The position numbers and the translations under genes were made by a program. Of a stretch of 64,000 nucleotides of DNA, positions 14,041 to 53,078 are shown piece by piece. The stretch lies in the NCBI GenBank assembly GCA_964495885.1, contig CAZBWO010000011.1:18933-82932 (forward strand). The letters run 5' to 3'. The DNA is from an uncultured Alteromonas sp. (lineage in GTDB: Bacteria > Bacteroidota > Bacteroidia > Flavobacteriales > Flavobacteriaceae). The first letter of the stretch is position 1. Every line of letters starts with the position of its first letter. The notes under the pieces are model-generated. The model did not search any database. It was not told the DNA's origin and was given only the letters and a program-made list of their open reading frames with translations.

Positions 14041-14045
14041 ATTGT

Positions 14046-36964: not shown

Positions 36965-37032
36965 AAGTAGGTTGGTTTGAGGGCAAATGTAACTAAAAAT
37001 AGGTAAGTTTATACAACCGCAAGTATTTAGTT

Positions 37033-37791: not shown

Positions 37792-37795
37792 AAAA

Positions 37796-39703
37796 CTACA
37801 ATGCGTTATCCATAATTTCCTGAACAACTTCAGGATTCAACAAGGTACTGGTATCCCCTAAATTGCCTGTGTCTTTATGGGCAATTTTGCGAAGGATCCT
37901 TCGCATGATTTTACCGCTTCGGGTTTTGGGCAACCCAGAAGTAAATTGAATTTTATCCAGTTTTGCAATTGGCCCAATCTTTTCGGTAATGAGTTGATTG
38001 ACCTCTTTTCGAAGATTATCATGGTTTCTAACTTCTCCAGTTTCCTTCAGTATCACATATCCGTAGAGTGCATTCCCTTTTACTTCGTGTGGGAATCCTA
38101 CAATCGCACTTTCGGCAACAGCTGGATGTTCATTTATGGCATCCTCAATAGGAGCGGTTCCCAAATTATGACCCGAGACAATAATTACATCATCTACACG
38201 TCCAGTGATTCTGTAATAACCGGTATTATCCCGAAGTGCCCCGTCGCCAGTAAAATATTTGTTTTCAAACGCCGAAAAATAGGTATCCTTATACCGTTGG
38301 TGATTCCCCCAAATGGTACGGGCCATGGAAGGCCAAGGGAATTTAACGCACAACCTTCCATTGGCGGGGCTTCCTTTAATTTCTTTCCCTTCTTCATCCA
38401 TTAAGCAAGGTTGGATTCCAGGAAGTGGTAATGTCGCGAATGTAGGAATAGTTGGTGTTGCAAAAGGAATAGGGGAAATCATGATTCCGCCTGTTTCGGT
38501 TTGCCACCAAGTATCTACAATAGGGGTATTTCCTTTTCCAATATTGTCATTGTACCAATGCCAGGCTTCCTCGTTAATGGGCTCTCCAACAGTCCCCAAA
38601 ACTTTTAGGGATGAGAGGTCATATTTTTCCACAAAATCAAGGTTTTCCTTGGCAAGTGCACGAATTGCGGTGGGAGCGGTATAAAACTGATTGATTTTAT
38701 GTTTTTCCACAATCTCCCAAAAACGTCCCCAATCTGGGTAGGTGGGAACACCTTCAAACATCACGGTGGTAGCACCATTGGCAAGAGGCCCATACACTAT
38801 GTAACTATGGCCGGTAATCCACCCAATATCTGCAGTACACCAATAAATATCATGCTCTTTATACTGAAAAACATTTTTAAAGGAATAAGCACTATATACC
38901 ATATACCCTCCAGTAGTGTGAACCATTCCTTTGGGTTTTCCTGTAGACCCTGAAGTGTACAAAATAAATAAGGGGTCTTCTGCATTCATTACTTCTGAGT
39001 CACAATCTAGGTAAGCAGCATCCAATAAGGGTTGTAACCAGTGATCCCTGCCTTCTTTCATTTGAATGTCTGAATCAATCCGCTTGGCTACCAGGACAGA
39101 TTCCACACAATTACAGGATTCCAAGGCTTCGTCTACAATTCCTTTGAGGTCTATGGTCTTGGCACCTCTATAAGAACCATCACTGGTAATCACCATTTTG
39201 CAGGTACTGTCATTAATTCGTGTGGCAAGTGCTTGTGCTGAAAACCCTGCAAAAACCACACTGTGGATTGCTCCAATACGGGCACAGGCCAATACGGAAA
39301 CAGCCAATTCCGGAATCATGGGTAAATAAATACAAACGCGGTCGCCTTTTTGAATACCCTTTTCTTTTAATACGTTGGCAAATTGGCATACCCGTTTATG
39401 TAATTCGCTATAGGTAATATGTTGCGCCTCTTCTGAAGGGTCATTTGGTTCAAACAAAATAGCGGTTTTGTCTCCTCGGGTGGCGAGGTGGCGATCAATG
39501 CAATTTTCGGTGATATTAAGTTGTGCACCTTCAAACCATTTCACTTCGGGTTTGTTGAAATCCCAATCAAGGACTTTATTCCAGCGTTTACGCCATAAGA
39601 AATGTTCTTCGGCTACTTCTTCCCAAAAAGTTTCGGGATCCCGAACACTTTTTCGGTATACTTGAAAATATTCTTCCAGGTTTTTAATGTGATAATTACT
39701 CAT
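37796..39703 (-). CDS. acs: Acetyl-CoA synthetase (AMP-forming)
   Basis: 635 aa. ...YTSGSTGKPKG..., ...WWQTETGG..., ...TGDGALRD..GYYRITGRVDDVI... and ...LPKTRSGKIMRR. Confidence 0.95.
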   Translation of the reverse strand: MSNYHIKNLEEYFQVYRKSVRDPETFWEEVAEEHFLWRKRWNKVLDWDFNKPEVKWFEGAQLNITENCIDRHLATRGDKTAILFEPNDPSEEAQHITYSELHKRVCQFANVLKEKGIQKGDRVCIYLPMIPELAVSVLACARIGAIHSVVFAGFSAQALATRINDSTCKMVITSDGSYRGAKTIDLKGIVDEALESCNCVESVLVAKRIDSDIQMKEGRDHWLQPLLDAAYLDCDSEVMNAEDPLFILYTSGSTGKPKGMVHTTGGYMVYSAYSFKNVFQYKEHDIYWCTADIGWITGHSYIVYGPLANGATTVMFEGVPTYPDWGRFWEIVEKHKINQFYTAPTAIRALAKENLDFVEKYDLSSLKVLGTVGEPINEEAWHWYNDNIGKGNTPIVDTWWQTETGGIMISPIPFATPTIPTFATLPLPGIQPCLMDEEGKEIKGSPANGRLCVKFPWPSMARTIWGNHQRYKDTYFSAFENKYFTGDGALRDNTGYYRITGRVDDVIIVSGHNLGTAPIEDAINEHPAVAESAIVGFPHEVKGNALYGYVILKETGEVRNHDNLRKEVNQLITEKIGPIAKLDKIQFTSGLPKTRSGKIMRRILRKIAHKDTGNLGDTSTLLNPEVVQEIMDNAL

Positions 39704-39713
39704 TTTGGTCGAT

Positions 39714-41600
39714 TTAAATAATATTGTGTTTTATGTACGTCTGTTCTATTTCTGAAATGATGCCCACATCATCAATGGTAGAGGGTATTTTATATTCAGA
39801 TTGGTCTGCGATATTCCGAAGTAATTTACGAAGAATTTTTCCAGAGCGTGTCTTCGGAAGGCGTTCCACGATTAATACTTCCTTGAAAGAGGCCACGGCA
39901 CCAATTTGCTCCCTCACAGCTCCCACGATTTCCACCTGAAGTTCTTCCGGTTTGCTTTGGGCGCCTGCTTTTAAAACAACCAAACCAAGAGGTCTCTGGC
40001 CTTTTAAGCTACAGCTAATGCCAAATACAGCACATTCAGCAACCTTAGGATGTGCGGCAACAACTTCTTCCATTTCTGCCGTTGAAAGACGGTGTCCCGC
40101 CACATTAATGATGTCATCTACGCGTCCGGTAATGTAGACATAGCCTTCTTCATCTTTGTAGCCTCCGTCACCGGAAAAATAATATCCTGGGAATTTTTCC
40201 AAGTATCCATGTTTGAAACGTTCGGGATTTCCCCAAAGGCCCATGAGCATTCCCGGAGGTAGCGGAAGTTTTACTACCACATACCCTTCTTTGTTGGGCT
40301 CCATTTCTTCGCCATCTTCATTCACAACTTGAATGTCATAACCGCAAACGGGTTTTCCTGCTGAAACTGGTTTTACCTTTTGTAATTCAAGCCCTGCCAT
40401 ATTTGCCAACATGGGCCATCCAGATTCGGTTTGCCACCAGTGATCAATAACAGGGATATTCAATTTTTCCTCTAGCCATTGCAGCGTTGCTACATCGCAG
40501 CGTTCACCAGCCAAGAATTGGTACTTTAAACAGGAGAGGTCAAAATCCTTTATCAATTCACCCTCTGGATCTTCCTTTTTGATGGCCCTAATAGCAGTTG
40601 GTGCGGTAAACATTACTTTTACTTGATGTTCACTAATCACCCGCCAAAAAGTAGATGCATCAGGCGTTTTAATAGGCTTACCTTCAAAAAGAATAGATGT
40701 GTTTCTGTTGAGCAATGGACCATAAACAATATAGCTATGGCCTACCACCCACCCAACATCACTAGCTGCCCAATAGGTGTCACCTTCATCAACCCCATAG
40801 ACATATTTCATGGAAAATTTCAAGGCTGTGGCATATCCTCCAGAATCCCGAACCACGCCTTTTGGTGTTCCTGTGGTACCGGAAGTATATAAAATATATA
40901 AAGGATGTGTTGCATGGACAGGAACTGGAGCTGCCGGGGAGGCATTATCTACCAATTCTTGATAATCAATATCATGAAGCTTCTTGGGGATTTCTACACC
41001 CAATTTACGATCAAAGATGATAACGTTTTCAGGGGGAAAGGAAGCTTCCTCGATGGCTTTATCTACAAACGGTTTGTACGGAATGATTCGGTTTATTTCA
41101 ATTCCGTTTGAAGCCGTGATAATAATTTTTGGTTTACAATCGTCAATTCTAATGGCAAGTTCATGTGGGGCAAAACCACCAAACACAACAGAATGGATGA
41201 CCCCCAATCTTGCACAAGCCAACATGGCGTAAATTGCCTGTGGAATCATGGGCATGTAAATAATGGCAGTATCTCCTTTTTTTAGTCCTAAGAATTTCAG
41301 CCCGCCCGCCAATTTGCCCACCTCCTCTTGAAGTTGAAAAAATGTTATTTTTTCAATGGTATTGGTTACAGGCGAATCATAGATGATTGCGTTTTGGTTT
41401 CCGTGGCCCTCTTCAATATGCTTGTCTATGCATAGGTAACTTATGTTAAGACTTCCATCTTCAAACCATTTATACCCTTCATCTTCTGTACGGGACAGTA
41501 TATTCTTTGGAAATTCAAACCATTTTAAAGCTTGAGCTTGTTCCTTCCAAAAGCTTTCAGGATTTTGAATGCTGTCTTGATAAAACTTTGTGTAGCTCAT
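39714..41600 (-). CDS. prpE: Propionate--CoA ligase-like acyl-CoA synthetase (PrpE family)
   Basis: 628 aa. The N-terminus MSYTKFYQDSIQNPESFWKEQA resembles PrpE. ...YTSGTTGTPKG..., ...WWQTESGW... and ...LPKTRSGKILRK. The symbol is by family resemblance only. Confidence 0.8.
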   Translation of the reverse strand: MSYTKFYQDSIQNPESFWKEQAQALKWFEFPKNILSRTEDEGYKWFEDGSLNISYLCIDKHIEEGHGNQNAIIYDSPVTNTIEKITFFQLQEEVGKLAGGLKFLGLKKGDTAIIYMPMIPQAIYAMLACARLGVIHSVVFGGFAPHELAIRIDDCKPKIIITASNGIEINRIIPYKPFVDKAIEEASFPPENVIIFDRKLGVEIPKKLHDIDYQELVDNASPAAPVPVHATHPLYILYTSGTTGTPKGVVRDSGGYATALKFSMKYVYGVDEGDTYWAASDVGWVVGHSYIVYGPLLNRNTSILFEGKPIKTPDASTFWRVISEHQVKVMFTAPTAIRAIKKEDPEGELIKDFDLSCLKYQFLAGERCDVATLQWLEEKLNIPVIDHWWQTESGWPMLANMAGLELQKVKPVSAGKPVCGYDIQVVNEDGEEMEPNKEGYVVVKLPLPPGMLMGLWGNPERFKHGYLEKFPGYYFSGDGGYKDEEGYVYITGRVDDIINVAGHRLSTAEMEEVVAAHPKVAECAVFGISCSLKGQRPLGLVVLKAGAQSKPEELQVEIVGAVREQIGAVASFKEVLIVERLPKTRSGKILRKLLRNIADQSEYKIPSTIDDVGIISEIEQTYIKHNII

Positions 41601-41603
41601 GAC

Positions 41604-41822
41604 TTACCCTTTTTTTGGTCCAAAGAGTCCAAACCAATTGGGGTTTAGCACTTTAAACTTGATGAGCACCCAAAGGATGACAATAAAACAAAGTCCCATA
41701 ACTATGGAATGCATAGGGGTTATAGGAGTTTCATTTTCCAGTTTGAATCGTATAAAAAGGGTAATAGCTGCGTAGAGACAAATGATGATGTCTGAAGCCA
41801 AAGGAGGTATGCGTAATTTCAT
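41604..41822 (-). CDS. Small two-TM membrane protein (72 aa), unknown function
   Basis: ATG start. The stop lies 3 nt before the prpE-like ATG. There are two hydrophobic helices and no family was recognised. Confidence 0.5.
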   Translation of the reverse strand: MKLRIPPLASDIIICLYAAITLFIRFKLENETPITPMHSIVMGLCFIVILWVLIKFKVLNPNWFGLFGPKKG

Positions 41823-41867
41823 GATACAAATCTTAAATTAAACCAGTTCTTGCACACAGACCAAGTA

Positions 41868-42230
41868 TTAACTCAAGAGTTCATGTATTTCTGAAACTAT
41901 TTTTTTTATTGAAAACGGCTTTGTAATATACTTATTTGCTCCAAGTTTTAAGCCTTTTTCAATATCTGAAGCTTTATTCTTCGCGGTGACAAATACAACT
42001 TTCGTTTCCTGTAAAGCTGTATTTTCCCGAATCCATTTCAACGTTTCATATCCATCTACTTTTGGCATCATAATATCCAAAAGAACAACATCTGGGATAT
42101 GTTTTTCTAAGATCGTGAGCGCTTCACTTCCGTCTCTTGCAATAAACACTTCAAAATCTTTTTTTTTGAAGGCATACTCCAAGGTCATCACTATGTTTGG
42201 CTCATCATCAACAATTAAAATCTTCCGCAT
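41868..42230 (-). CDS. Stand-alone receiver (CheY-like) response regulator with no output domain
   Basis: MRKILIVDDEP, phospho-acceptor ...VVLLDIMMPKVDG..., ...FVTAK... and ...YITKPF. The track start 42239 is TTG, and ATG 42230 is preferred. Confidence 0.9.
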   Translation of the reverse strand: MRKILIVDDEPNIVMTLEYAFKKKDFEVFIARDGSEALTILEKHIPDVVLLDIMMPKVDGYETLKWIRENTALQETKVVFVTAKNKASDIEKGLKLGANKYITKPFSIKKIVSEIHELLS

Positions 42231-42247
42231 CTTTTTCAAAAAGCAAT

Positions 42248-44935
42248 TTACTTAAAAGGTAGTTTAAAAACAAGGGTTGCCCCTGTTTTATTGCCCTTTT
42301 TAGCATAAATTTTTCCATGGTGCATCTCAATGATATGTTTACAAATGGAAAGCCCTAAACCACTACCCATGGGTTTTTTGGTGTTTTGTGTTTTGGATTG
42401 GTAAAATTTGTCAAAAATATAACGTATATCTTCTTCTGGAATTCCCTTTCCGTTGTCTGAAACACTTACTTTTGCCCACTTCTTTTTGACTTCGCAGGAA
42501 ATGATAATTTTTCCATCTTCCTTTGGGACAAACTTGAATGCATTGCCCAGAAGATTGGTGAGTACCTGCAGGATTCGGTCTTCATCATAAGTTACAATAA
42601 CATTATCCATAGGATGGCAGATGATTTCAATCCCTTTTTTATTCGCTATATGGCGTACCCCGTTCACAGCTTTCAGCACAGAAACTTTTAAATCGTTTTT
42701 CGCAAGATTTAATTTTTCCCTTCCAGAGGACAGTTTTTCAAAATCAAGGATATTATTGATTAACCGAGACAAGCGTTCACTATCAGTGAGGATATTGTTC
42801 AGGAATTGAAATTTCATTTCAACGGGCATTTCCTCATCCTCTAACAACAACTCTGTTGCAGCCCTAATTCCCGTTAATGGGGTTTTTAGCTCATGAGCCA
42901 CCGTATCCAAAAACTCATCTTTCTGTTTGTCTTTTACCATCAAACTTTCATTGGCATTCTGTAATTGTTCGGTAAGATGGGTAAGCGCATCCGATTTCTC
43001 CCTAAGCAGTTTGTTTTTTGTAATGTTGTCTTTAGATTCTTCCAGGATTTTTAACACTTCCACTAGGCTTATTTCCTGTTCCTTGACCACTCCGGAAATA
43101 AGTATTTTTGCAGAAGCGCTCCCAATGGTTCCGGTTAAAAGTTTTTCTGAAAAATTAATCAGACGTGCATCTGCCATTTGTGTATCCTTCGGAAGGTTAT
43201 ATTTATTGAAAAACAGGTTGAGGGCACGTTGGGTTTGATTTTCCCCTAAAAATTTTGTGAGGACATTTTGAATATCCGAAACATATGCTTCCCCCTTCCA
43301 AACCAGTGCACTATCCTGAAGAGAAGTATATTTTTTGGGGTCTACATACATTTCTGCATAGTTCCGTTCCCGATAATTGCCCTTTTGTAGTAAAGAGATG
43401 GTTAGGTAGCAAAATGTATTCAGCAGTAAACTCCAAAAAAATGCATGTGCTGGAGGAGATAGAAAATCCACTCCAAATAAAGCATAAGGTTTTAAAGCTT
43501 CCAACCCAAAAAACCCCTCATCTATTAATGCTGCTTGCCCGTTATATGCTTCCAATGTGAACGGAAGGATAAGGGTGTATAAGGCAACAAAAAATCCTAA
43601 GATGATTCCAATAATTGCTGCCCTTGAAGTACCTCGATTCCAGTAAAGTCCTATAAAAAAAGAGGGGGCCAATTGAGAAATGACAACAAAGGAGATAAGT
43701 CCTATGGAAATAAGGGGCAGTTCAATAGAGAAATTGGCATAAAACCAATAGGCAATAATGATGATCAAAAAAATAGAGGCCCGACGAATATTTTTAATGT
43801 ACTTTGCATTTTTTCGGGACTCTCCCTCACTAAACCTACTTAGAAATCCATAGGGAATCACCAGGTTATTACTCACCATGGTGGAGAGTGCCAAGGTAGA
43901 AACAACCACCATGGAAATTACTGCGGAAAACCCGCCCAAAAAAACCAATGTGGCCAAAAAAGTTTGGCCATTTTCCAGCGGAAGCAAAAGGGTAAAATAG
44001 TCACTATTAACAGCATCCCCAAAAGTGAGTTTTCCTCCCCATGCAATAAAAATCACAAAGAGGTTGAATAGCAAAAGGTACAGCGGGAAAAGCCAAATTG
44101 CTTTTTTAAGATACTTTTCCCTACTATTTTCCACTACTGATATTTGAAATTGCCTTGGAAGCAGAAAAATGGCAAAAAAGGAAAGCCCAATGGTTAGAAA
44201 CCAATTGAAACCATCGTCCATCCCTTGGATATGGGTGAGCTTTTCGAAATCTGGAGTTTGTGAAAATGCATCGTGAATTGCACTGGGGCCATCAAAAAGG
44301 GAAAAAGTCACATAACCTCCAATAAGCAAGAAGAACACTAGTTTCAATACAGATTCCAGTGCCACCGAAGTAACGATTCCTCTGTGTTTTTCAGAGGCGT
44401 CTGTTTTTTGTGTTCCGAAGAATGCAGCAAAAATGGCCAAAATTACAGCGATATACAATGTAGAATCATCATAGATACCAGAGGCTACGTAACTGGTCTC
44501 ATCACTCATGATCTGAAAGGTTTCAGAAACAGCTTTTAGCTGTAGGGCAATGTAGGGAACGGTGCCAATGACACAGATAAGCGTTACCAAAGCACCAAGA
44601 AACCGATGGTTTCCGTGGCGTAATGATAGAAAATCGGCAATGGAAGAAATCTTGTGCTGTTTTGAAATCCGCATGATTTTCCGAAGCAAAACAATCCAAA
44701 GCGGGAAGGCAATCACAGGCCCTAAGTAGATAGGCAAAAAATGAATCCCACTATTTGCGGCTACCCCAATACTTCCGTAGTAGGTCCATGCAGAGCAATA
44801 AACGGCAAGGGACAAAGTATAAATATATGGATTGTTCACCCATTTGCTTTTCGCATTCTTTTCGGCTAAAAAAGCAATGTAAAAGAGGACAGATAAATAC
44901 CCAATAATGATGGCGAAAAGAAGGTAATTACTCAT
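42248..44935 (-). CDS. Sodium:solute-symporter-fused sensor histidine kinase (CbrA/CrbS-type architecture, non-hybrid)
   Basis: 895 aa. About 500 aa form a 13-TM SSS-like domain. This is followed by a coiled coil, H-box FLDTVAHELKTPLTGI, N-box LLGNAFKF, G1 DNGKGIP and G2 GSGLGLSI. There is no C-terminal receiver. Confidence 0.9.
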   Translation of the reverse strand: MSNYLLFAIIIGYLSVLFYIAFLAEKNAKSKWVNNPYIYTLSLAVYCSAWTYYGSIGVAANSGIHFLPIYLGPVIAFPLWIVLLRKIMRISKQHKISSIADFLSLRHGNHRFLGALVTLICVIGTVPYIALQLKAVSETFQIMSDETSYVASGIYDDSTLYIAVILAIFAAFFGTQKTDASEKHRGIVTSVALESVLKLVFFLLIGGYVTFSLFDGPSAIHDAFSQTPDFEKLTHIQGMDDGFNWFLTIGLSFFAIFLLPRQFQISVVENSREKYLKKAIWLFPLYLLLFNLFVIFIAWGGKLTFGDAVNSDYFTLLLPLENGQTFLATLVFLGGFSAVISMVVVSTLALSTMVSNNLVIPYGFLSRFSEGESRKNAKYIKNIRRASIFLIIIIAYWFYANFSIELPLISIGLISFVVISQLAPSFFIGLYWNRGTSRAAIIGIILGFFVALYTLILPFTLEAYNGQAALIDEGFFGLEALKPYALFGVDFLSPPAHAFFWSLLLNTFCYLTISLLQKGNYRERNYAEMYVDPKKYTSLQDSALVWKGEAYVSDIQNVLTKFLGENQTQRALNLFFNKYNLPKDTQMADARLINFSEKLLTGTIGSASAKILISGVVKEQEISLVEVLKILEESKDNITKNKLLREKSDALTHLTEQLQNANESLMVKDKQKDEFLDTVAHELKTPLTGIRAATELLLEDEEMPVEMKFQFLNNILTDSERLSRLINNILDFEKLSSGREKLNLAKNDLKVSVLKAVNGVRHIANKKGIEIICHPMDNVIVTYDEDRILQVLTNLLGNAFKFVPKEDGKIIISCEVKKKWAKVSVSDNGKGIPEEDIRYIFDKFYQSKTQNTKKPMGSGLGLSICKHIIEMHHGKIYAKKGNKTGATLVFKLPFK

Positions 44936-45122
44936 AGTGCCTTGATAATATGATATAGGAAATTACAATGGCAATGGCCCAGACCAAAAAGCAATAGAAG
45001 TAAAAAACAGGAAACCCAAAGATAGCCCCATCCCCACTAAAAATAAGCAACAAAGGCACATTGAAAAGTGCCAATAATGCCAAGGAAAGGATTATCAGTT
45101 TTTGTTCGTGTCTTTTTTTCAC
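44928..45122 (-). CDS. Small two-TM membrane protein (64 aa), translationally coupled to the sensor kinase
   Basis: GTG start. Its stop overlaps the kinase start in ATGAGTAA (44928-44935). Two TM helices carry an FGFPVFYFY motif. Confidence 0.45.
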   Translation of the reverse strand: MKKRHEQKLIILSLALLALFNVPLLLIFSGDGAIFGFPVFYFYCFLVWAIAIVISYIILSRHYE

Positions 45123-45143
45123 GGAATGAAGATACTTAAAATT

Positions 45144-45180
45144 AAAAAAACAGCGCTCTTAGAATGAGAACGCTGTTTTT
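45144..45180 (-). terminator. Rho-independent terminator after the symporter gene
   Basis: The minus strand reads CAGCGTTCTcattctaAGAGCGCTG, a 9-bp stem with 1 mismatch. It is followed by T7 and lies 22 nt after the stop at 45202. Confidence 0.7.
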
Positions 45181-45201
45181 ACTAACAACCAAACCAATTT
45201 A

Positions 45202-46968
45202 CTAGTGCTGTTGGGCTTCTCCAGCACCACTTGGTATTCTAATATGCTCTACAATGTCCTGTACATTTTTTGGCGGAGCAGCGGTTACCCTTGAAATGAC
45301 CACGGAAATCACCACGTTTACAATCATAGCTATGGTTCCGAAGCCTTCAGGGGAAGTTCCAAACCACCAGTCTTCAGCAGTTCCTCCTCCAAACATTCCT
45401 AATTTGTATTTCATCATATAAAATAACATCAATAGTATTCCAACGACCATTCCCGTTACCGCTCCTTGTTTGTTCATTCGTTTGTCAAAAATCCCTAAAA
45501 TGATGGCTGGGAAGAAGGAAGCTGCCGCAAGCCCGAATGCGAGGGCAACAACCGCTGCAACAAATCCTGGCGGGTTGATTCCGAAGTATCCAGCAATGAT
45601 GATGGCTCCAAGGATAGAGAAACGTGCTGCCCAAAGCTCTCCTTTTTCGGAAATATTAGGCTTAATCTGTTTTTTAATCAAATCGTGTGAAATAGAAGTT
45701 GAAATAACCAACAATAATCCAGCTGCTGTTGAAAGCGCAGCTGCTAATCCCCCTGCTGCAACTAAAGCAATAACCCAGTTAGGGAGCTTGGCAATTTCTG
45801 GATTGGCCAATACCATGATATCGCGGTCCACGTACAATTCATTTGTTTCGCCATTGGCATTTGAGATAGTGCGTTCACCATGTGTTCCTCGGCCTTCGGT
45901 GTACACAGGTTTTTTTCCGTCAATTGCACTTCCGGCTACATACTGTATTTTTCCATCCCCATTTTTATCACTCCAGGCAATGAGTCCGGTGTCCTCCCAA
46001 TTTTTAAACCATTGGGGTACTTCCGTATAGTTGGTATTTTCAACCGTTTCAATAAGGTTTGTTCTGGCGAATACAGCTACAGCAGGTGCTGTGGTATATA
46101 GGATAGCAATGAACAATAAAGCCAATCCAGCCGATTTCCGGGCATCTTTCACCTTGGGAACGGTAAAAAACCGAACAATTACGTGAGGTAATCCCGCCGT
46201 ACCCACCATAAGCGCTAGGGTAATTGCAAATACGTCCCAAGTAGATTTGGTTCCAGAGGTGTATTCTTTAAACCCTAATTGGGTATGTAGGTTATCCAGT
46301 TTTTCCAATAGATATGTACCATCTTCCAGTGTACCTCCCATTCCAATTTGAGGGATAGGGTTACCTGTCATTTGTATGGAGATAAATATTGCCGGCACCA
46401 TGAATGCGAATATCAACACACAATATTGTGCTACCTGGGTATAGGTGATTCCTTTCATTCCGCCAAGGAAGGCAAAAACCAGCACCACGGCCATTCCAAT
46501 AATCACTCCAAGGGTAATATCTACTTGAAGAAATTGGGAGAATACAATACCTACCCCCCGCATTTGTCCCGCCACATAGGTGAAGGATACAATTAGTGCA
46601 CAAATAACTGCTACGGTTCTTGCGGTGTTTGAATAATACCGATCCCCAATAAAATCTGGAACCGTAAATTTTCCAAATTTCCGTAAATATGGGGCTAAAA
46701 GGAGTGCTAGTAGTACATATCCTCCGGTCCATCCCATAAGGAAAACAGAACCGTCGTATCCCATGAAGGAAATTAATCCGGCCATAGAGATAAAAGAAGC
46801 CGCGCTCATCCAATCGGCGGCTGTAGCCATTCCGTTTGCTAGTGGGGAAACACCTCCGCCAGCTACGTAAAATTCTTTAGTGGAACCCGCTCGGGCCCAA
46901 ATTGCAATTCCAAAATAGAGGGTGAATGTAACCCCTACTAAAATCCATGTCCAAACTTGAACGCTCAT
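45202..46968 (-). CDS. Na+/solute symporter large subunit, VC_2705/ActP-like (acetate/monocarboxylate permease)
   Basis: 588 aa, SSF family. It is immediately preceded by a DUF4212-type small subunit and embedded in an acs locus. Confidence 0.88.
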   Translation of the reverse strand: MSVQVWTWILVGVTFTLYFGIAIWARAGSTKEFYVAGGGVSPLANGMATAADWMSAASFISMAGLISFMGYDGSVFLMGWTGGYVLLALLLAPYLRKFGKFTVPDFIGDRYYSNTARTVAVICALIVSFTYVAGQMRGVGIVFSQFLQVDITLGVIIGMAVVLVFAFLGGMKGITYTQVAQYCVLIFAFMVPAIFISIQMTGNPIPQIGMGGTLEDGTYLLEKLDNLHTQLGFKEYTSGTKSTWDVFAITLALMVGTAGLPHVIVRFFTVPKVKDARKSAGLALLFIAILYTTAPAVAVFARTNLIETVENTNYTEVPQWFKNWEDTGLIAWSDKNGDGKIQYVAGSAIDGKKPVYTEGRGTHGERTISNANGETNELYVDRDIMVLANPEIAKLPNWVIALVAAGGLAAALSTAAGLLLVISTSISHDLIKKQIKPNISEKGELWAARFSILGAIIIAGYFGINPPGFVAAVVALAFGLAAASFFPAIILGIFDKRMNKQGAVTGMVVGILLMLFYMMKYKLGMFGGGTAEDWWFGTSPEGFGTIAMIVNVVISVVISRVTAAPPKNVQDIVEHIRIPSGAGEAQQH

Positions 46969-46992
46969 AATATGTAGTTTTTTTAGTTAGGG

Positions 46993-47250
46993 CTACTCGT
47001 CGTAACCGTATTTTTTATCGAGTTTATTCATTAATCTCACGTATACGAAAATAAGGATCACGAATACGTAGATAGAGCCTTGTTGGGCGAACCAGAATCC
47101 TAGTTTGAACCCTCCTAATTTGATGCTATTGAGCGCATCGCAAAATATGATGCCACATCCATAGGAAACGATAAACCAGATGGTAAGAAGGATTACCAGG
47201 TATTTCAGGTTTTCTTTCCAATAGGCAACTGCTTTGTTTTTTTCAGTCAT
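46993..47250 (-). CDS. Solute:sodium symporter small subunit (DUF4212)
   Basis: 85 aa, two TM. ...LGGFKLGFWFAQQGSIYVFVILIFVY... matches the DUF4212 core as I remember it. Confidence 0.8.
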   Translation of the reverse strand: MTEKNKAVAYWKENLKYLVILLTIWFIVSYGCGIIFCDALNSIKLGGFKLGFWFAQQGSIYVFVILIFVYVRLMNKLDKKYGYDE

Positions 47251-47261
47251 GATTATTGATA

Positions 47262-48512
47262 TTAGAGATAGATCATGGCTTGCAGCGTAACAGTTCCTTG
47301 TTCGCTATCGCCAAATTTTTGATTTTTATATTCCAAGGTAAGTTTGGAGTTGTGACCGCTAAAGAAGGCGTTTGCCCCTAGTCCGAATACATTTCGGTTG
47401 TCATCTACTGCATCATAGCTATTGGAAGCAAAGGATACAAATGGTTGGAAACGGGTTTTCTTATCGGTTCCAGGAATCACATATCCAGCATGTGCAAAGA
47501 GCATGCTTCCAGTTCCGTAGGCGCTATAAAGGTAATTTTCACCGTAATCATTAGATTGAAAGGTAGCATATCCTGTAATGGCAGCACCATTTTCTCCTAG
47601 CGGGGCATCATAAAATGCATCTACGGCAAATATAGCCACATCTTCTCCTTGCAGTTCTCCGCTTTCCAATCTAACAGCTCCACTTGGATGGAAGAAAAAT
47701 CCAGCCCCTACATTGAAGACTTTTTTGGTCCCAAGATAAGTTCCCACTTTGTAGGGAAGGAAATTAGATTCCTGATCAAAAATCTGATAATCAAAATAAC
47801 CAGCATAGGTAAAACCAGCATCTTTAGAGCCTAAGAGCTTTTTCCCTGCATAATATGTTCTATTAGGGTCTAATGCTACATTTCCTTCATCATCATATTG
47901 AATCACATTCTCAACTTCCAGACTATTGGTAAGGGCATCGTTTATTGCTACCCGATATTGTAGTTTTCCAAACTTTCCTTTTCCGTAAACACCAAGATGT
48001 CTAGCAAATTGATCTGAAAGCCCAATTGTTGCCCAAGACTGTCTGTTGTTGTCTAGGGTTAACATATTGAGTGTGCTTTGATTGTTTAAACGGGAAATCC
48101 CGTTCCAATAATGGAGACCACCCCCAATGGCATGATCAGATCCAATGGAATATTGGGCCCATACATCATGAAAGAATAATTGGGAGCCACTTCCTTTTCC
48201 TGTAGGACTTAATTGTCCTGCATTTAGACTATTTAGTCCAAAATGGGTAAGAATCAGGAAGTCTTTGTTGATTTGCGCAAAAGCAAGGATACGGGCCCTT
48301 CTAAGGTTGAATCCAAGGTTACTGGAATTGTCTGGAACTTCGTCTGTGTACGTTGCTTGAACTTGTGCCCAAGAAATGATGCGGAGGTACTTGTTTCCCT
48401 CCTCATCAAATTTCACTTTGAGTCCGCCACCATAATCTGGTGAGCCTTGCGAAAAGGCATTCTGAAAAGCAAACAAACAGCAGCTTAACAGGATTAGAGC
48501 AAGTTTTCTCAT
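47262..48512 (-). CDS. Outer-membrane porin (beta-barrel), first gene of the symporter operon
   Basis: 416 aa. Signal peptide MRKLALILLSCCLFAFQNAFSQ, alternating beta-strand pattern, and a C-terminal ...TLQAMIYL. It lies 11 nt upstream of the small-subunit gene. Confidence 0.75.
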   Translation of the reverse strand: MRKLALILLSCCLFAFQNAFSQGSPDYGGGLKVKFDEEGNKYLRIISWAQVQATYTDEVPDNSSNLGFNLRRARILAFAQINKDFLILTHFGLNSLNAGQLSPTGKGSGSQLFFHDVWAQYSIGSDHAIGGGLHYWNGISRLNNQSTLNMLTLDNNRQSWATIGLSDQFARHLGVYGKGKFGKLQYRVAINDALTNSLEVENVIQYDDEGNVALDPNRTYYAGKKLLGSKDAGFTYAGYFDYQIFDQESNFLPYKVGTYLGTKKVFNVGAGFFFHPSGAVRLESGELQGEDVAIFAVDAFYDAPLGENGAAITGYATFQSNDYGENYLYSAYGTGSMLFAHAGYVIPGTDKKTRFQPFVSFASNSYDAVDDNRNVFGLGANAFFSGHNSKLTLEYKNQKFGDSEQGTVTLQAMIYL

Positions 48513-48621
48513 TTTTTGGTCGATTAATTAGAGTTAATAATTGGTCTTGTGTGCCTTACGAATCTCCAAAAAAGAATGAGTGCAATAAAAAGTAATATAT
48601 ATATTTGCTAATAAAGTATAG

Positions 48622-49041
48622 TTAATCCCTAAAACGCTCCCATTTAATAAGCATAAACTTGTCTCCAAGCTCTGTGATAACTACACCAGCCCCTGAAAGA
48701 TTTTCGGTTCTTTGAAAGTAATTTGAAAGTTCGTTCGCGTTTAGGATTCGGTAGGTTGGATGGTAATCGCCGTGGTACGGTCTCTTGATATTGTATTTTT
48801 TCACCCAATTAATAATACTCACATGGGAGACACCCAATATACGTTCTATTTCCCGGTAGGTGAGGCCCTCTAGATAAAGCTGTAGTGCTTTGTTTACGTA
48901 GTAGTCATCAATTTTTTTCCCTAGTTTGTTCACTGTAAAATAATACTTGCATTCCTTGCATTTGTAACGCTGCCTATTGGCTACAATACCGCTTTTGATA
49001 TAGCTTTCGGAACCGCAATTGGGACAGTGATTAATTTTCAT
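48622..49041 (-). CDS. InsA-like Zn-ribbon + HTH protein (IS1 InsA/COG3677-like N-terminus) with an extra C-terminal domain
   Basis: MKINHCPNCGSESYIKSGIVANRQRYKCKECKYYFT (CxxC...CxxC), HTH ...TYREIERILGVSHVSIINWVKKY..., then about 50 further residues. The track start 49077 is TTG, and ATG 49041 is preferred. Confidence 0.65.
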   Translation of the reverse strand: MKINHCPNCGSESYIKSGIVANRQRYKCKECKYYFTVNKLGKKIDDYYVNKALQLYLEGLTYREIERILGVSHVSIINWVKKYNIKRPYHGDYHPTYRILNANELSNYFQRTENLSGAGVVITELGDKFMLIKWERFRD

Positions 49042-49151
49042 ATATATAAAATTAGCATAAATATATTTATTTAGCAATAATTGTTAACGAAATGTAAAAG
49101 AATTTTCTACCTTGTCTATGCAAAACCACTAGTATTTCTAAGCGTTCAATC

Positions 49152-51056
49152 ATGGGAAACAATACAATTTCCTTACGGATATTTGATTTTCTAAAGAATT
49201 TTCCGCCATTTCATATTCTTGAAAAGGAACAACTTCTGGAAATTAGTAGCGCTGTGAAAGTGCTTTATTTTGAAGATGGCGAAACAGTTTTTAAGTTAGG
49301 AGATTTACCGCAACCACACTTTTTTGTGGTTCATGAGGGCGCTGTTGGTTTGTACTCAGATACTGAAGGCGGGCAACTGCTCATTAATATTTGTGACGAA
49401 GGCGAGGTATTTGGTCTTCGTCCAATTATAGAAAAGGATGCCTACAAGCTTCATGCATCCACCAGGGAAGAATCCATTCTTTATGCCATTCCTGTTGATG
49501 CTATTTTGCCATTTATGGAAGTGAATGCAGAATTGAAGCAATTTATAATCGCTAGTTTTAATGTAAATCTTGCGAACGGCGGCAAACAATTTTCCACTAC
49601 TTCCTCGAAAGAACCGTTTAGTGATGGGTTTTTTGATCATCAACTAGTACAATTTAGCAAGAACCCTATTGTTTGTGATGATTCCCATACCATTCAGCAA
49701 GCTGCTTTGTTAATGGAAAAACATCGGGTAGGATCTGTAATTGTAGTAAACGATCAATATCCAAAAGGGATCATAACCGATAAGGATTTGAGGCTTAAGG
49801 TAGCCACTGGAAAGGTGGGAATTAATGCTTTGGCCTCAGAAATTATGTCTTCCCCGGTTATCACGGCTTCAGCTCAATTAACAGTTGCCGAAGCACAGAT
49901 TATGATGCTTCAGCATAAAATAACACACTTGTGCATCACTAAAGATGGGACACCCCAAAGTGTTTTGGTCGGGGTACTTTCCGAACACGATATTGTAGCT
50001 CTTAGAAGCAACAATCCTTATTCCTTGCTAAAGGAAATAAAAAGGGCCAAGGATATAGAGGGGGTAAAAAACTGTCGTTTAAAGCTTTCCAAACTTATTG
50101 AAAAGTATATACAACAACAGGCTCCCATGGTTTTCGTTACTCAAATTTCGGGAGCTATAAATGATGCCCTTACACAACAAATTATCAAATTGAGTATTGC
50201 AGAAATGGACACTCCGCCGCCTGTTCCTTTTGGTTGGTTAGCATTGGGTAGCCAAGGAAGGAATGAGCAATTACTGTTAACAGATCAAGATAATGCCTTG
50301 GTTTTTGGGGAGGTGACAGAAGCTGAAAAGAAAGTTGTGTCACAGTATTTTTTATCCCTTGCGGAAAAAGTAAATACGGGCCTTCATACTATTGGTTATG
50401 TATATTGCCCTGCGGAGATGATGGCCAAAAACCCCAAGTGGTGTCTTTCATTGACAGATTGGAAAAAACAATTTCAGCATTGGATTACCCGCCCGGATGA
50501 AGAGTCTATGATGTTGTGTACGATCTTTTTTGATTTCAAATGTGTTTACGGGGATGCATCACTTTCCGAAGCTTTGGCGCAACATATTTTTTCTTCCATT
50601 GGGGATTATGAGGTGTTTTTGAACTATCTCGCACGAAATGCAATTCAAAACCCTGCCCCAATTGGCTTTTTTAGACAATTTATTGTAGAAAAGGATGCGC
50701 AGCACAAAAATGAATTTGACTTAAAGGCGAGGGCACTTATGCCTTTAATTGATGCTGCTAGGGTTTTATTGTTTTCACATAGTGTAAGCGGAAAAAATAA
50801 TACCATGGAACGATACGAAGCCTTGATGGAAATTGAGCCACAGAATGAAGAATTGTTTGCATCTTGCCAAGAAGCATTTTCCCTGCTGTTACGGTTCAGA
50901 ACAGAGCAGGGGTTTAAGGCAGAGGACTCTGGAAGATACCTTCCGCTGGAATCTTTAAATAAAATGGAAAAGTTGCAACTACGAGCTTGTTTCAAACCTT
51001 TAAAGGATATTCAGGAGTTGCTTCGGGTTCGTTTTCAACTTTCACAAATCACCTAA
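49152..51056 (+). CDS. Signal-transduction protein: cNMP-binding domain + tandem CBS + DUF294 pol-beta nucleotidyltransferase + DUF294_C
   Basis: 634 aa. cNMP-like ...GEVFGLRPII.... CBS ...HRVGSVIVVNDQYPKGIITDKDL... and ...ITHLCITKDGTPQSVLVGVLSEHDI.... NTase ...LALGSQGRNEQLLLTDQDNALVF... Confidence 0.85.
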   Translation: MGNNTISLRIFDFLKNFPPFHILEKEQLLEISSAVKVLYFEDGETVFKLGDLPQPHFFVVHEGAVGLYSDTEGGQLLINICDEGEVFGLRPIIEKDAYKLHASTREESILYAIPVDAILPFMEVNAELKQFIIASFNVNLANGGKQFSTTSSKEPFSDGFFDHQLVQFSKNPIVCDDSHTIQQAALLMEKHRVGSVIVVNDQYPKGIITDKDLRLKVATGKVGINALASEIMSSPVITASAQLTVAEAQIMMLQHKITHLCITKDGTPQSVLVGVLSEHDIVALRSNNPYSLLKEIKRAKDIEGVKNCRLKLSKLIEKYIQQQAPMVFVTQISGAINDALTQQIIKLSIAEMDTPPPVPFGWLALGSQGRNEQLLLTDQDNALVFGEVTEAEKKVVSQYFLSLAEKVNTGLHTIGYVYCPAEMMAKNPKWCLSLTDWKKQFQHWITRPDEESMMLCTIFFDFKCVYGDASLSEALAQHIFSSIGDYEVFLNYLARNAIQNPAPIGFFRQFIVEKDAQHKNEFDLKARALMPLIDAARVLLFSHSVSGKNNTMERYEALMEIEPQNEELFASCQEAFSLLLRFRTEQGFKAEDSGRYLPLESLNKMEKLQLRACFKPLKDIQELLRVRFQLSQIT

Positions 51057-51715
51057 TTTTGGCATTCTTCAGCAAAAAGAAATATCCACCCTATTGGAAT
51101 CGGTACCTTGAGGGATTTTCCGAAAAACCCCCAAAAAGCATTGTAGATGCCAGATTTATAGTCTTTGACACCGAAACCACAGGGCTCAACCCATCTAACG
51201 ACAAACTACTTTCCATAGGCGCTGTCACCGTGCAAGGAAATTGCATTGATGTGCAGCAGAGTTTTGAAGTTTTTGTGGAACAGGAAAAATTTACCCCAGA
51301 GACCGTACAAATACATGGGATTAGAAAAGCGGGATCCGTAAACAAAATTACGGAAGCAAAAGCAATGGAGGCTTTTCTTGATTTTTTGGAAAATGGAATC
51401 CTGGTTGCGCATCACGTTGATTTTGATGTGGCGATGATCAATGGAGCGTTGAAACAACTGAAGCTTCCGAAGTTAAAAAACAATTGCATAGATACTGGGG
51501 ACCTTTATCGCATGCTTTTGGGTAAACCGCAACGCCCTATTTCACTGGACGCCCTTTGTGAGGAATTCGGCGTAAAAACCCATGATAGGCATAATGCTTT
51601 GGGGGATGCGTTGATTACGGCAATGCTTTTTCAAAAAATTACAAGGCAATTACAACATGAAAAAAAATATACCCTTGCAGATTTATTCCATACGTCCAAA
51701 AGTCATGGTTGGTAG
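50987..51715 (+). CDS. DEDDh 3'-5' exonuclease (DnaQ/epsilon-like)
   Basis: ExoI FIVFDTETTGL, ExoII VAHHVDFDVAMI, ExoIII HNALGDALITAML. ATG 50987 overlaps the upstream gene by 70 nt. The alternative start TTG 51059 lies 2 nt after that gene's stop. Confidence 0.85.
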   Translation: MFQTFKGYSGVASGSFSTFTNHLILAFFSKKKYPPYWNRYLEGFSEKPPKSIVDARFIVFDTETTGLNPSNDKLLSIGAVTVQGNCIDVQQSFEVFVEQEKFTPETVQIHGIRKAGSVNKITEAKAMEAFLDFLENGILVAHHVDFDVAMINGALKQLKLPKLKNNCIDTGDLYRMLLGKPQRPISLDALCEEFGVKTHDRHNALGDALITAMLFQKITRQLQHEKKYTLADLFHTSKSHGW

Positions 51716-51716
51716 C

Positions 51717-53078
51717 CTACCCAAATAGGTGTTTCACCACATCATGTACTTTGCCTACTTTGATGATTTGAATACCGAAGTTTTTCTTTGAAAGTTTACA
51801 GTATTTGGAAATGACAATACAGCCAAAGCCTAGTTTTTCTGCTTCGGAAATGCGTTGCTCAATTCGGTTTACGGGGCGCACTTCACCGGCAAGGCCTATT
51901 TCCGCAGCAAAACAAAGCGATTTATCTATGGGAATATCTACGTTTGAAGAAAGAACTGAAGCCACAATTGCCAAATCTATGGCGGGATCATCCACCGAAA
52001 TTCCACCCGTAATATTTAAAAAGACATCCTTGGCCCCCAATTTAAAACCGGCTCTTTTTTCAAGGACCGCCAAAATCATGTTCAGTCGTTTGGTGTTATA
52101 TCCCGTAGACGATCGCTGAGGCGTTCCATAGACAGCGGTACTCACCAATGCCTGAATTTCAATCATAAGGGGTCGCATGCCCTCTAAGGTGGCGGCAATA
52201 GCGGTTCCGCTAAGGTCTTCGTCGTTTTTGGAAATAAGAATTTCTGAAGGGTTGGACACTTCCTTGAGTCCGTTGGATTGCATTTCAAAAATACCTAGTT
52301 CGTTGGTACTTCCGAAGCGGTTTTTATGTGCCCGAAGGATTCTGTAGACATGATTTCGGTCTCCCTCAAATTGCAACACGGTATCTACCATATGTTCCAA
52401 TATTTTGGGACCCGCAATGTTACCATCTTTGGTAATATGCCCAATAAGGATCACGGGAGTGTGGGTTTCCTTGGCAAATTTAATGAGTTCTGCGGTGCAT
52501 TCCCTTATTTGTGAAATACTACCTGCGGCACTATCCAGATAGTCTGTTTGAAGGGTTTGAATGGAATCAATGACCACGACATTTGGTTCGAGGTCGGCAA
52601 TGTGTTTGAAAATGTTTTGGGTTTTGGTTTCGGTAAGGATAAAGCAGTTGGTTTCTTCCGGAGTAATCCGTTCTGCCCTAAGTTTAATTTGTTGCGCGCT
52701 TTCCTCTCCGGTTACGTATAACGTTTTGTAATGAAGCCGAAGCGCCACCTGTAACATCAACGTGCTTTTTCCAATTCCGGGTTCTCCTCCCAAAAGCGTA
52801 AGGGACCCTGGCACCAATCCTCCTCCCAAGACTCTGTTGAGTTCTTGGTTTTGGGTATCCATACGTACTTCGGAATGGGCAGGGATTTCTGAAATTTTAT
52901 AAGGTTTTGCAGCTCTTTTGGAAGTCCCCTCTGTAGCTTTCCAAGTTGTCTTTTCAGCCTTCTGCACCACTTCTTCCACAATGGTGTTCCATTCCTTACA
53001 AGAGGTACATTGTCCTTGCCATTTTGAAAATTGGGTGCCACAATTTTGGCAGAAAAAAGAGGTCTTAACTTTTGCCAT
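51717..53078 (-). CDS. radA: DNA repair protein RadA/Sms
   Basis: Zn finger CQNCGTQFSKWQGQCTSCKEWNT, Walker A GGEPGIGKST, the KNRFG motif and a Lon-like C-terminal domain. Confidence 0.95.
   Translation of the reverse strand: MAKVKTSFFCQNCGTQFSKWQGQCTSCKEWNTIVEEVVQKAEKTTWKATEGTSKRAAKPYKISEIPAHSEVRMDTQNQELNRVLGGGLVPGSLTLLGGEPGIGKSTLMLQVALRLHYKTLYVTGEESAQQIKLRAERITPEETNCFILTETKTQNIFKHIADLEPNVVVIDSIQTLQTDYLDSAAGSISQIRECTAELIKFAKETHTPVILIGHITKDGNIAGPKILEHMVDTVLQFEGDRNHVYRILRAHKNRFGSTNELGIFEMQSNGLKEVSNPSEILISKNDEDLSGTAIAATLEGMRPLMIEIQALVSTAVYGTPQRSSTGYNTKRLNMILAVLEKRAGFKLGAKDVFLNITGGISVDDPAIDLAIVASVLSSNVDIPIDKSLCFAAEIGLAGEVRPVNRIEQRISEAEKLGFGCIVISKYCKLSKKNFGIQIIKVGKVHDVVKHLFG

Follow-up and report, generated by a model that had tools for sequence, protein, structure and literature searches.

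The subject of this report is a pair of adjacent genes in a stretch of 64,000 nucleotides (the window) from contig CAZBWO010000011.1 (positions 18,933 to 82,932, forward strand; GenBank assembly GCA_964495885.1), deposited as an uncultured Alteromonas sp. and placed by GTDB in the Flavobacteriaceae (Bacteroidota). The first gene (49152..51056, + strand) encodes a sensor nucleotidyltransferase of 634 amino acids (aa) that belongs to the COG2905/DUF294 family, and the second (51059..51715, + strand) encodes a DnaQ-like DEDDh 3'-5' exonuclease of 218 aa with a TTG start. The two genes are best explained as a conserved, translationally coupled regulatory enzyme pair of a short-chain monocarboxylate (acetate, propionate, pyruvate) module, which is controlled by a CrbS/MxtR-type sensor kinase with an SLC5 domain. 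The pair almost certainly corresponds to one of uncharacterised function that has already been published as part of the CrbS/R (MxtR/ErdR) acetate regulon.

The COG2905/DUF294 protein and its exonuclease are among the most widespread signalling enzyme pairs without known chemistry, and they belong to a regulon that decides bacterial uptake and activation of acetate, propionate and pyruvate. The window adds a phylum-level example and not a new system, and the question of function is no more testable here than in Pseudomonas. New here are the predicted likeness of the catalytic half of the nucleotidyltransferase to AMP-transferases, the probable lack of cyclic nucleotide monophosphate (cNMP) contacts in its N-terminal domain, and a row of genes in Desulfobacterota for a receiver (REC) protein, a PAS-containing exonuclease and the nucleotidyltransferase.

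Co-inheritance of the pair and its published counterpart

A profile scan using one genome per species gave 80 loci which, together with a Gillisia locus (L001), make 81 loci from six phyla. Their flanks were screened by phmmer with the window proteins as queries, and a locus was counted as carrying uptake/activation genes if Acs, a sodium/solute symporter (SSS) or DUF4212 was encoded within 10 kb. The exonuclease gene adjoins the nucleotidyltransferase gene, with a 2-nt gap or an overlap, in 70 of the 81 loci, and uptake/activation genes lie within 10 kb of the pair in 42. By group, an adjacent exonuclease and nearby uptake/activation genes were found, respectively, in 50/54 and 26/54 loci of Bacteroidota, 13/20 and 13/20 of Desulfobacterota (broad sense), 3/3 and 3/3 of Nitrospirota, 1/1 and 0/1 of Acidobacteriota, 1/1 and 0/1 of Chloroflexota, and 2/2 and 0/2 of Pseudomonas. 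Several of the misses are due to contig ends. Where full 10-kb flanks were available on both sides, uptake/activation genes were present in 20/36 loci from Bacteroidota and 10/16 from the others; the chance expectation is ~2%, a rough estimate of our own that assumes a handful of such genes per genome of ~4 Mb. The link of the exonuclease to the nucleotidyltransferase is close to obligatory. The link of the pair to acetate genes is real and crosses phyla, and it is not obligatory. An earlier note, made from the sequence of the window, had described the pair as attached to an acetate-uptake locus and proposed that this synteny extends beyond close relatives. Both statements hold: synteny with symporter and acs genes reaches Desulfobacterota and Nitrospirota, and the cluster in the window is larger than described, as it also includes genes for a kinase, a REC protein and two acyl-CoA synthetases.

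Three loci deviate in copy number or integrity. In a Gelidibacter metagenome-assembled genome (L008, 3302-8532), two complete nucleotidyltransferase-exonuclease pairs stand in tandem and are followed by acs, a 72-aa open reading frame (ORF), and the REC and kinase genes; here the pair is duplicated as a unit. The nucleotidyltransferase gene of L050 (9995-12581) is spread over three frames, as a pseudogene or through an assembly error, and its exonuclease gene is intact. A Nitrospiraceae locus (L071, 6358-11929) carries two nucleotidyltransferase copies around a response-regulator gene, with an exonuclease gene after the second copy only.

The published counterparts are PP_0354/PP_0353 (P. putida/alloputida KT2440), Pflu5625 (P. 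fluorescens SBW25) and PA3233/PA3232 (P. aeruginosa), in which the same four-domain nucleotidyltransferase is followed by an RNase_T-type exonuclease in one operon. Two Pseudomonas loci (L077 and L078) were found by the same profile, and their nucleotidyltransferases share 29-30% identity with the window protein over aa 13-630. Pflu5625 is a member of the CrbS/R regulon of P. fluorescens; its deletion gave no phenotype, and a nucleotidylation-based regulation was suggested (PMC5715377). PP_0354 of P. putida is an acetate-induced gene with an ErdR-bound promoter (PMC8402216). PP_0354 and PP_0353 form an operon, and neither deletion alters growth on 20 mM acetate; the PP_0353 exonuclease mutant is impaired on pyruvate, like an actP-I mutant, and the nucleotidyltransferase mutant is not (PMC9927547). 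According to a 2026 preprint, the PP_0354/PP_0353 operon is among the genes most dependent on MxtR/ErdR and both deletions moderately reduce growth on propionate; its authors explicitly put forward the sensing of cNMP and energy together with protein modification (10.64898/2026.09.07.749794). In P. aeruginosa, PA3232-PA3235 are up ~16-fold on propionate (PMC9765439). In randomly barcoded transposon sequencing (RB-TnSeq), DUF4212/symporter pairs proved important on D,L-lactate or D-alanine, and a neighbouring "COG2905" gene was cofit with them; Price et al. speculated that this gene is needed for symporter expression (10.1101/072470).

Literature searches, including one for DUF294, exonuclease and acetate in combination, found no biochemical activity reported for either protein. 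The earlier view of the pair as uncharacterised is correct as regards biochemistry, but the pair is not unstudied, since its regulon, deletion phenotypes and a nucleotidylation proposal are in print. Of the acetate or propionate phenotype that had been expected of deletions, the published mutants show the one on propionate and not that on acetate.

The nucleotidyltransferase and the exonuclease

The nucleotidyltransferase has the architecture read from the sequence in the earlier note, with four Pfam families above cut-off. From the N-terminus, these are a CRP/FNR-like beta-roll domain (49266..49520, aa 39-123; PF00027 cNMP_binding, 51.3 bits against a cut-off of 27.5), a CBS pair (49656..50006, ~aa 169-285; two PF00571 repeats, 75 bits), the DUF294 pol-beta nucleotidyltransferase core (50085..50501, aa 312-450; PF03445, 152 bits, E 1e-44), and the helical DUF294_C domain (50613..51035, aa 488-628; PF10335, 98 bits), a 'substrate-binding' domain of the GlnD/GlnE type, all on the + strand. 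The family comprises 1771 clusters (50% identity) at E<1e-30, nearly all of 630-650 aa and of the same architecture, which persists down to ~28% identity to the window protein.

The catalytic motif LGSQGRNEQLLLTDQDNA is located at aa 365-382. It provides the set G366-X11-D378-X-D380, and a third acid, D461, lies just past the DUF294 core. In an alignment of 126 representatives, which are 28-50% identical to the window protein, S367, R370, D461, R537 and R554 are invariant, and G366, E372, Q373, D378, D380 and K525 are at least 90% conserved. The G-S...DxD motif noticed earlier is therefore a family feature to which D461 can be added, and the pol-beta catalytic set is both complete and under selection. 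In the CBS repeats, the G-h-h-T/S-x-x-D motif is retained (G206/T209/D212 and G274/D280 are conserved); this motif is of the type found at adenosyl-ligand sites, and an adenosyl compound is the typical ligand class predicted from such a motif.

A sequence search of the PDB with the nucleotidyltransferase matched chains, the CBS part of AcuB among them, to the CBS and cNMP-like parts, and gave no solved structure for the DUF294 core. An AlphaFold model of the protein (pLDDT 92.5, pTM 0.83) was compared with known folds by Foldseek. The best match of the catalytic half is DrrA/SidM (6yx5_B; E 2e-8, 345 columns, target TM-score 0.68). GlnE ranks top as well, with matches to both of its halves (1v4a, 3k7d); the DrrA and GlnE matches span E 2e-8 to 7e-7 over 345-395 columns. 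The protein AMP-transferases DrrA and GlnE are the nearest structural relatives of the modelled catalytic half, which bears out the proposal of a fold of the GlnD/GlnE type. The Pfam models of GlnE and GlnD (PF03710, PF08335) did not match the window protein at E<=0.01, and homologs reached 13-16 bits with the GlnE and GlnD_UR_UTase models, under the cut-offs of 24 and 21. DUF294_C has been grouped with the C-terminal domain of GlnD/GlnE (PMC3710099).

The modelled likeness to GlnE and DrrA favours, without proving, a protein substrate over RNA tailing or signal synthesis. The G-X11-D-X-D spacing corresponds to the signature of the GlnE/GlnD/DrrA group of protein nucleotidylyltransferases. The N-terminal half of GlnE is a removing enzyme; hence the DUF294 core could be a writer or an eraser.

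An alternative that has to be weighed against this background is that the nucleotidyltransferase makes a small linear or cyclic nucleotide when its sensors are occupied and that the exonuclease degrades this signal as Orn or NrnC act on pNpN. Pol-beta nucleotidyltransferases do include signal synthases, a synthase-plus-hydrolase pairing would suit the tight co-inheritance, and both partners carry or acquire sensor domains. However, the fold matches GlnE and DrrA and not cGAS/CD-NTase or OAS-type enzymes, the PADLOC models, those of CBASS-type synthases included, gave no match for the nucleotidyltransferase, and no receptor or effector candidate is conserved beside the pair, so that we consider a nucleotide signal very unlikely. 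A reading of the pair as an anti-phage system was rejected, as the nucleotidyltransferase has no PADLOC match and the exonuclease matches generic DEDDh models only.

Two observations concern domain content. No fusion of the nucleotidyltransferase with the exonuclease was seen among the top 150 representatives, and the long forms hold a second cNMP-like domain instead. Shorter relatives of ~470-500 aa (P0275, P0285, P0307, P0328 and others) align only from ~aa 160 and consist of CBS, DUF294 and DUF294_C without the CRP-like domain; some of these truncated entries may be fragments. If the short forms are real, the CRP-like domain would be dispensable in some lineages.

The earlier note had the pair gated by cNMP level, which is doubtful. 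In CAP, PKA and PKG, the residue that follows the conserved Gly of the phosphate-binding cassette is Glu. In the present family, the position after this Gly (89) is occupied by I, V, L, A or F in 106 of the 126 sequences, and the position of the cassette Arg by Tyr (Y98) in 85 of 126, the placement of the Arg being partly by hand alignment. The register was fixed by HMMER alignment to PKG chains, in which FGLRPII of the query stands against FGERALL of PKG. The best single PDB chain for the domain is a Crp/Fnr regulator with an FFGMRP motif, and the Desulfobacterota variants hold two such domains, FGGISILMN...(A/V)R(T/S), likewise without the Glu. As both hallmark cassette residues, Glu and Arg, are replaced family-wide, the N-terminal domain is probably not a cNMP sensor.

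In Gillisia L001, a gene for a TPR protein with a class III nucleotide cyclase domain (13291-15069, - strand) is found downstream of the pair, at a distance of ~0.7 kb and in opposite orientation. The neighbour may bear on an involvement of cNMP, or it may be a coincidence.

The exonuclease matches PF00929 RNase_T (109 bits) and the TIGR00573 dnaQ-domain model (104 bits against a cut-off of 71.5), and D37, E39, D123, H178 and D183 of the DEDDh set, which make up Exo I (D-x-E), Exo II (D) and Exo III (H-x4-D), are invariant among its close homologs; all three motifs reported for this gene are thus confirmed. Its TTG start lies 2 nt after the stop codon (TAA) of the nucleotidyltransferase gene. 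A 242-aa ORF from 50987, which would overlap the upstream gene by 70 nt, was also considered and judged unlikely, since the database contains an identical 218-aa protein and homologs of 218-221 aa, which align over 95-100% and mostly over 100%. Of the two starts that had been offered, TTG 51059 is hence retained and the overlapping one is not, and the 2-nt gap preserves the geometry from which co-expression of the two genes had been expected.

In the PDB, the chains most similar to the exonuclease belong to PolC exonuclease, Pol III epsilon, Cas2-DEDDh and DinG exonuclease (E 5e-22 to 1e-15), with ~30% identity to Pol III epsilon and PolC exonuclease; RNase T was matched with only E ~2e-4. Foldseek gave target TM-scores of ~0.8 with DnaQ-family chains. 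Identity with the replicative Pol III epsilon was rejected on the scores (TIGR01406, 87 bits against 223; NF004316, 91 against 196), as was identity with RNase T (TIGR01298, 31.5 bits against a cut-off of 246). The top NCBIfam model is NF006601 of the PRK09145 type (133.5 bits, under the cut-off of 189). By these profile scores the protein is a divergent relative of the PRK09145-type 3'-5' exonuclease, and by sequence and fold it is an ordinary DnaQ-family enzyme.

The first 30 residues (51059-51150, + strand) form an N-terminal extension with a confidently predicted helix at aa 11-21. P10, Y16 and F20 of this extension are conserved in Bacteroidota and are not present in Pol III epsilon or PolC exonuclease. 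The helix could be a docking element for the nucleotidyltransferase.

At its 3' end, the exonuclease gene is convergent with radA, with 1 nt between the stop codons (51715-51717) and no space for a terminator; the adjacency to radA is not kept in other loci. This arrangement, the similarity of the exonuclease above all to proofreading domains and the weak mutant phenotypes would suit a pair with no shared mechanism, that is, a generic repair or proofreading paralog joined to an unrelated sensor by operon hitch-hiking. Such an origin is hardly credible given the adjacency in 70/81 loci and six phyla, the duplication as a unit in L008, the scores under the Pol III epsilon equivalog cut-offs and the fact that the Pseudomonas genes form an acetate-induced, ErdR-bound operon; moreover, the neighbourhood of radA is not conserved elsewhere.

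Proposed protein nucleotidylation and alternative mechanisms

A variant of the locus in Desulfobacterota bears on the mechanism. Its gene order is an acs-like gene, a sodium/solute symporter family (SSF) transporter gene, a REC-only gene, an RNase_T fusion gene and the nucleotidyltransferase gene. The exonuclease of the variant has 720-816 aa and consists of an N-terminal region of ~500 aa and a C-terminal RNase_T domain; PAS domains are present in the N-terminal region of the fusions in L060 and L064, and none were found in that of L054.

The REC-only response regulator of the window (41868..42239, - strand; 123 aa, PF00072) shares 52% identity over 117 aa with a REC-only protein from Desulfobacterales (L060, 7031-7402), an unusually high conservation across phyla for a receiver domain. 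The SLC5(SSF)-HisKA-HATPase sensor kinase of the window (42248..44935, - strand; Pfam), which is CrbS/MxtR-like and non-hybrid, shares 40% identity along its whole length with the SLC5 kinase encoded in L064 (segment 60-5454 of that locus). As judged from these alignments, the REC and kinase genes are orthologous across phyla. Given the two identity values, the kinase, the REC-only protein, the exonuclease and the nucleotidyltransferase travel together as a signalling set in two phyla that are distant from each other. Four of the five variant loci (L054, L060, L070 and L076) have the REC gene immediately before the genes for exonuclease and nucleotidyltransferase and gave no detectable kinase; hence, the REC protein there keeps company with the exonuclease and the nucleotidyltransferase and not with a kinase.

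For the action of the pair, a writer/eraser mechanism based on transfer of nucleoside monophosphate (NMP) to protein is put forward tentatively. The nucleotidyltransferase would covalently NMPylate a protein of the module, the candidates being Acs, the symporter or the kinase, the REC protein and the exonuclease itself. The trigger would be the adenylate status, read through the CBS pair, together with some ligand on the CRP-like domain. The exonuclease would belong to the same pathway; its simplest role would be to hydrolyse the NMP phosphodiester and so reset the mark, with a chemistry that would be the same as, or analogous to, the release of 5'-NMP from a 3' end. The net effect would be a post-translational tuning of monocarboxylate uptake and activation, which should show most clearly when the substrate is propionate or pyruvate and not abundant acetate.

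This mechanism draws on the fold evidence, the near-obligate pairing, the translational coupling and the pyruvate result, in which impairment of the exonuclease mutant and not of the nucleotidyltransferase mutant fits the removal of an inhibitory mark. The writer/eraser idea of the earlier note is plausible, and protein nucleotidylation had already been proposed in print.

Several points weigh against it. DEDDh enzymes are not known to de-NMPylate proteins, and the known erasers have other folds (the AR domain of GlnE, the HD domain of GlnD, and SidD). GlnE-fold domains can remove the nucleotide themselves, and a separate eraser is not required. By sequence, the exonuclease looks like an ordinary DNA/RNA 3'-5' exonuclease, and the literature searches returned no biochemical activity for either protein from any organism. 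In Bacteroidota, about every second locus lacks uptake and acs genes within 10 kb. Both single deletions cut growth on propionate, which is not expected of a simple antagonistic pair, and the deletions have no phenotype on acetate at 20 mM (PMC9927547).

In a different view, the exonuclease is an effector that acts on nucleic acid, such as the 3' ends of transporter or acs mRNA or of a small RNA, and thereby sets uptake expression. The nucleotidyltransferase would then be a sensor-controlled modulator that NMPylates the nuclease or adds or repairs nucleotides at the 3' end of the RNA on which the nuclease acts; an analogy is provided by tRNA, a substrate of both the CCA-adding enzyme and RNase T. 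The canonical character of the exonuclease as a nucleic-acid DEDDh enzyme, in sequence and in fold, agrees with this model, and so does the variant of Desulfobacterota, whose exonuclease follows a REC-only gene and carries a PAS-containing sensor region of ~500 aa of its own, as expected of a regulated output domain. Also in line are the mutant data: on pyruvate, loss of the exonuclease gives the same phenotype as loss of a transporter, on propionate the two deletions agree in that each causes a growth defect, and the role in symporter expression suggested by Price et al. is based on RB-TnSeq cofitness with DUF4212/symporter genes. Nevertheless, the nearest structural relatives of the nucleotidyltransferase modify proteins and not RNA 3' ends, and no RNA or DNA target is known. 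An Rfam scan of 37000-53500 gave no riboswitch or small RNA match at E<=0.1, and the lack of a pyruvate phenotype upon deletion of the nucleotidyltransferase makes the nuclease independent of its partner on that substrate. We regard an action on nucleic acid as unlikely, yet as the strongest of the alternatives.

A more specific form of the writer/eraser mechanism would make the pair a non-transcriptional output branch of the SLC5-kinase pathway. In it, the REC-only protein would dock on the two enzymes, of which the exonuclease would be the first known protein de-NMPylase with a DnaQ fold, and the outcome would be a reversible nucleotidylation switch on Acs or the symporter. This combination is distinctly improbable. 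Should protein nucleotidylation reversed by a DnaQ-fold enzyme prove true, it would be a new reversible modification in carbon metabolism and a new DEDDh activity. For such work the layouts in Bacteroidota and Desulfobacterota, where a CrbR-type regulator is absent, offer candidate partners in the REC-only protein and the PAS-fused exonuclease.

The divergent gene cluster and comparison with known systems

The nucleotidyltransferase-exonuclease pair is divergent from an uptake/activation cluster on the minus strand, whose gene order is the same in Gillisia L001. The first gene of the cluster (48622..49041) encodes a Zn-ribbon/helix-turn-helix (HTH) protein of 139 aa. It is followed by genes for a 416-aa outer-membrane porin (47262..48512; weak ExtI-porin match), the position of which is conserved in Bacteroidota loci, a DUF4212/TIGR03647 small symporter subunit (46993..47250; 121 bits) and a VC_2705-family sodium/solute symporter (45202..46968; TIGR03648, 863 bits against a cut-off of 321). 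A 64-aa ORF for a hydrophobic membrane protein (44928..45122) then overlaps the start of the kinase gene by 8 nt. Beyond the kinase and REC genes, a 72-aa ORF (41604-41822) separates the latter from the first of two acyl-CoA synthetase genes, which encode a paralog (39714..41600; NF007815, 713 bits, under the cut-off; NF001208, 675 bits against 657) and the acetate-CoA ligase AcsA (37796..39703; TIGR02188, 967 bits against a cut-off of 725). The kinase is without a Response_reg domain, and the cluster contains no CrbR-like gene.

Judging from its model scores, the paralog is an intermediate between the propionate- and acetate-CoA ligase models, and the tandem synthetases suggest that the cluster handles propionate or other short acids besides acetate. 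The 64-aa ORF matched neither Pfam nor NCBIfam models. Loci of Bacteroidota and Desulfobacterota (L064, L066, L069) have a similar small ORF ahead of the orthologous kinase gene, and it is reminiscent of the small ORFs that are translationally coupled to other SLC5-type kinases and transporters. The 72-aa ORF is without a family match, yet it recurs at the same place in many Bacteroidota loci.

The Zn-ribbon/HTH protein is InsA/IS1 N-terminal-like (NF033558, 77 bits against a cut-off of 100; NF050000 Zn domain, 42 bits against 28). Its start is most likely ATG 49041, and not TTG 49077, on the basis of an alignment of four genera and the equal position and length (139 aa) of the gene in Gillisia L001. 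The gene could be read as a decaying IS1 remnant, which was rejected as the principal explanation because Gillisia, Flavobacterium and Flagellimonas also have this 139-aa gene at the head of the cluster, and a conserved element lies upstream of it. The protein may be the DNA-binding regulator of the cluster, which is without a regulator of the CrbR type.

The upstream element occupies part of the divergent intergenic region between the Zn-ribbon/HTH and nucleotidyltransferase genes (49042..49151). It is an AT-rich segment of ~35 nt (49042-49076), nearly invariant in the alignment of the four genera, and includes two TTAGCA repeats ~20 nt apart and the perfect palindrome ATAAATATATTTAT at 49057-49070. 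In L038, the element stays with the HTH gene although that gene is not beside the nucleotidyltransferase gene. No common motif was seen upstream of the nucleotidyltransferase gene when ~50 Bacteroidota loci were compared by eye. A scan for sigma-70 promoters and terminators gave no excess over shuffled sequence and is uninformative for a Bacteroidota genome.

The window thus represents a Bacteroidota example of the pair known from Pseudomonas, in a distinct arrangement that includes a VC_2705/DUF4212 symporter, a porin, a non-hybrid kinase, a REC-only protein and a Zn-ribbon/HTH gene. In both settings, the pair is linked to acs, to monocarboxylate transporters of the SSS family and to a sensor kinase with an SLC5 domain. 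However, the transporter in the window is of the VC_2705/DUF4212 type and accompanied by a porin, and is not of the ActP/YjcH type. Compared with Pseudomonas CrbS/R, the kinase is non-hybrid and the regulator is a REC-only protein instead of the DNA-binding CrbR, and a Zn-ribbon/HTH gene heads the cluster. The CrbR-binding ACTU motif was defined for Gammaproteobacteria, whereas the window has the different AT-rich element described above.

Among enzymes of known chemistry, the window nucleotidyltransferase shares with GlnE and GlnD the G-X11-D-X-D core followed by a helical domain of the KNTase_C clan, and the logic proposed for the pair, a signal-controlled reversible nucleotidylation of protein, would be theirs as well. 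It differs in its sensors, which are CBS and CRP-like domains and not ACT domains or PII, and removal in GlnE and GlnD is performed by a second nucleotidyltransferase domain or an HD domain and not by a DEDDh enzyme. Separate genes for writer and eraser are known from DrrA/SidM and SidD of Legionella, to which the window pair would be similar if the exonuclease has the eraser role proposed here. DrrA, in contrast, is a secreted effector that acts on Rab1 and is without CBS or CRP-like sensors, and SidD is PP2C-like and not a DEDDh enzyme.

In the mycobacterial cAMP-dependent acetyltransferase and in AcuA/AcuB/AcuC of Bacillus, Acs is controlled by a protein-modifying enzyme to which a cNMP-type or CBS sensor is coupled. 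The chemistry in these systems is acetylation and their enzymes are not homologous to the window pair; they may serve as a precedent for energy-linked post-translational control of Acs, and Acs as the target here would be an analogy only. Finally, the window exonuclease has all the DEDDh motifs of Pol III epsilon, PolC exonuclease, Cas2-DEDDh, DinG and RNase T. Unlike these DnaQ-family exonucleases, it has an N-terminal helical extension of ~30 aa and is linked to a DUF294 protein and not to a polymerase.

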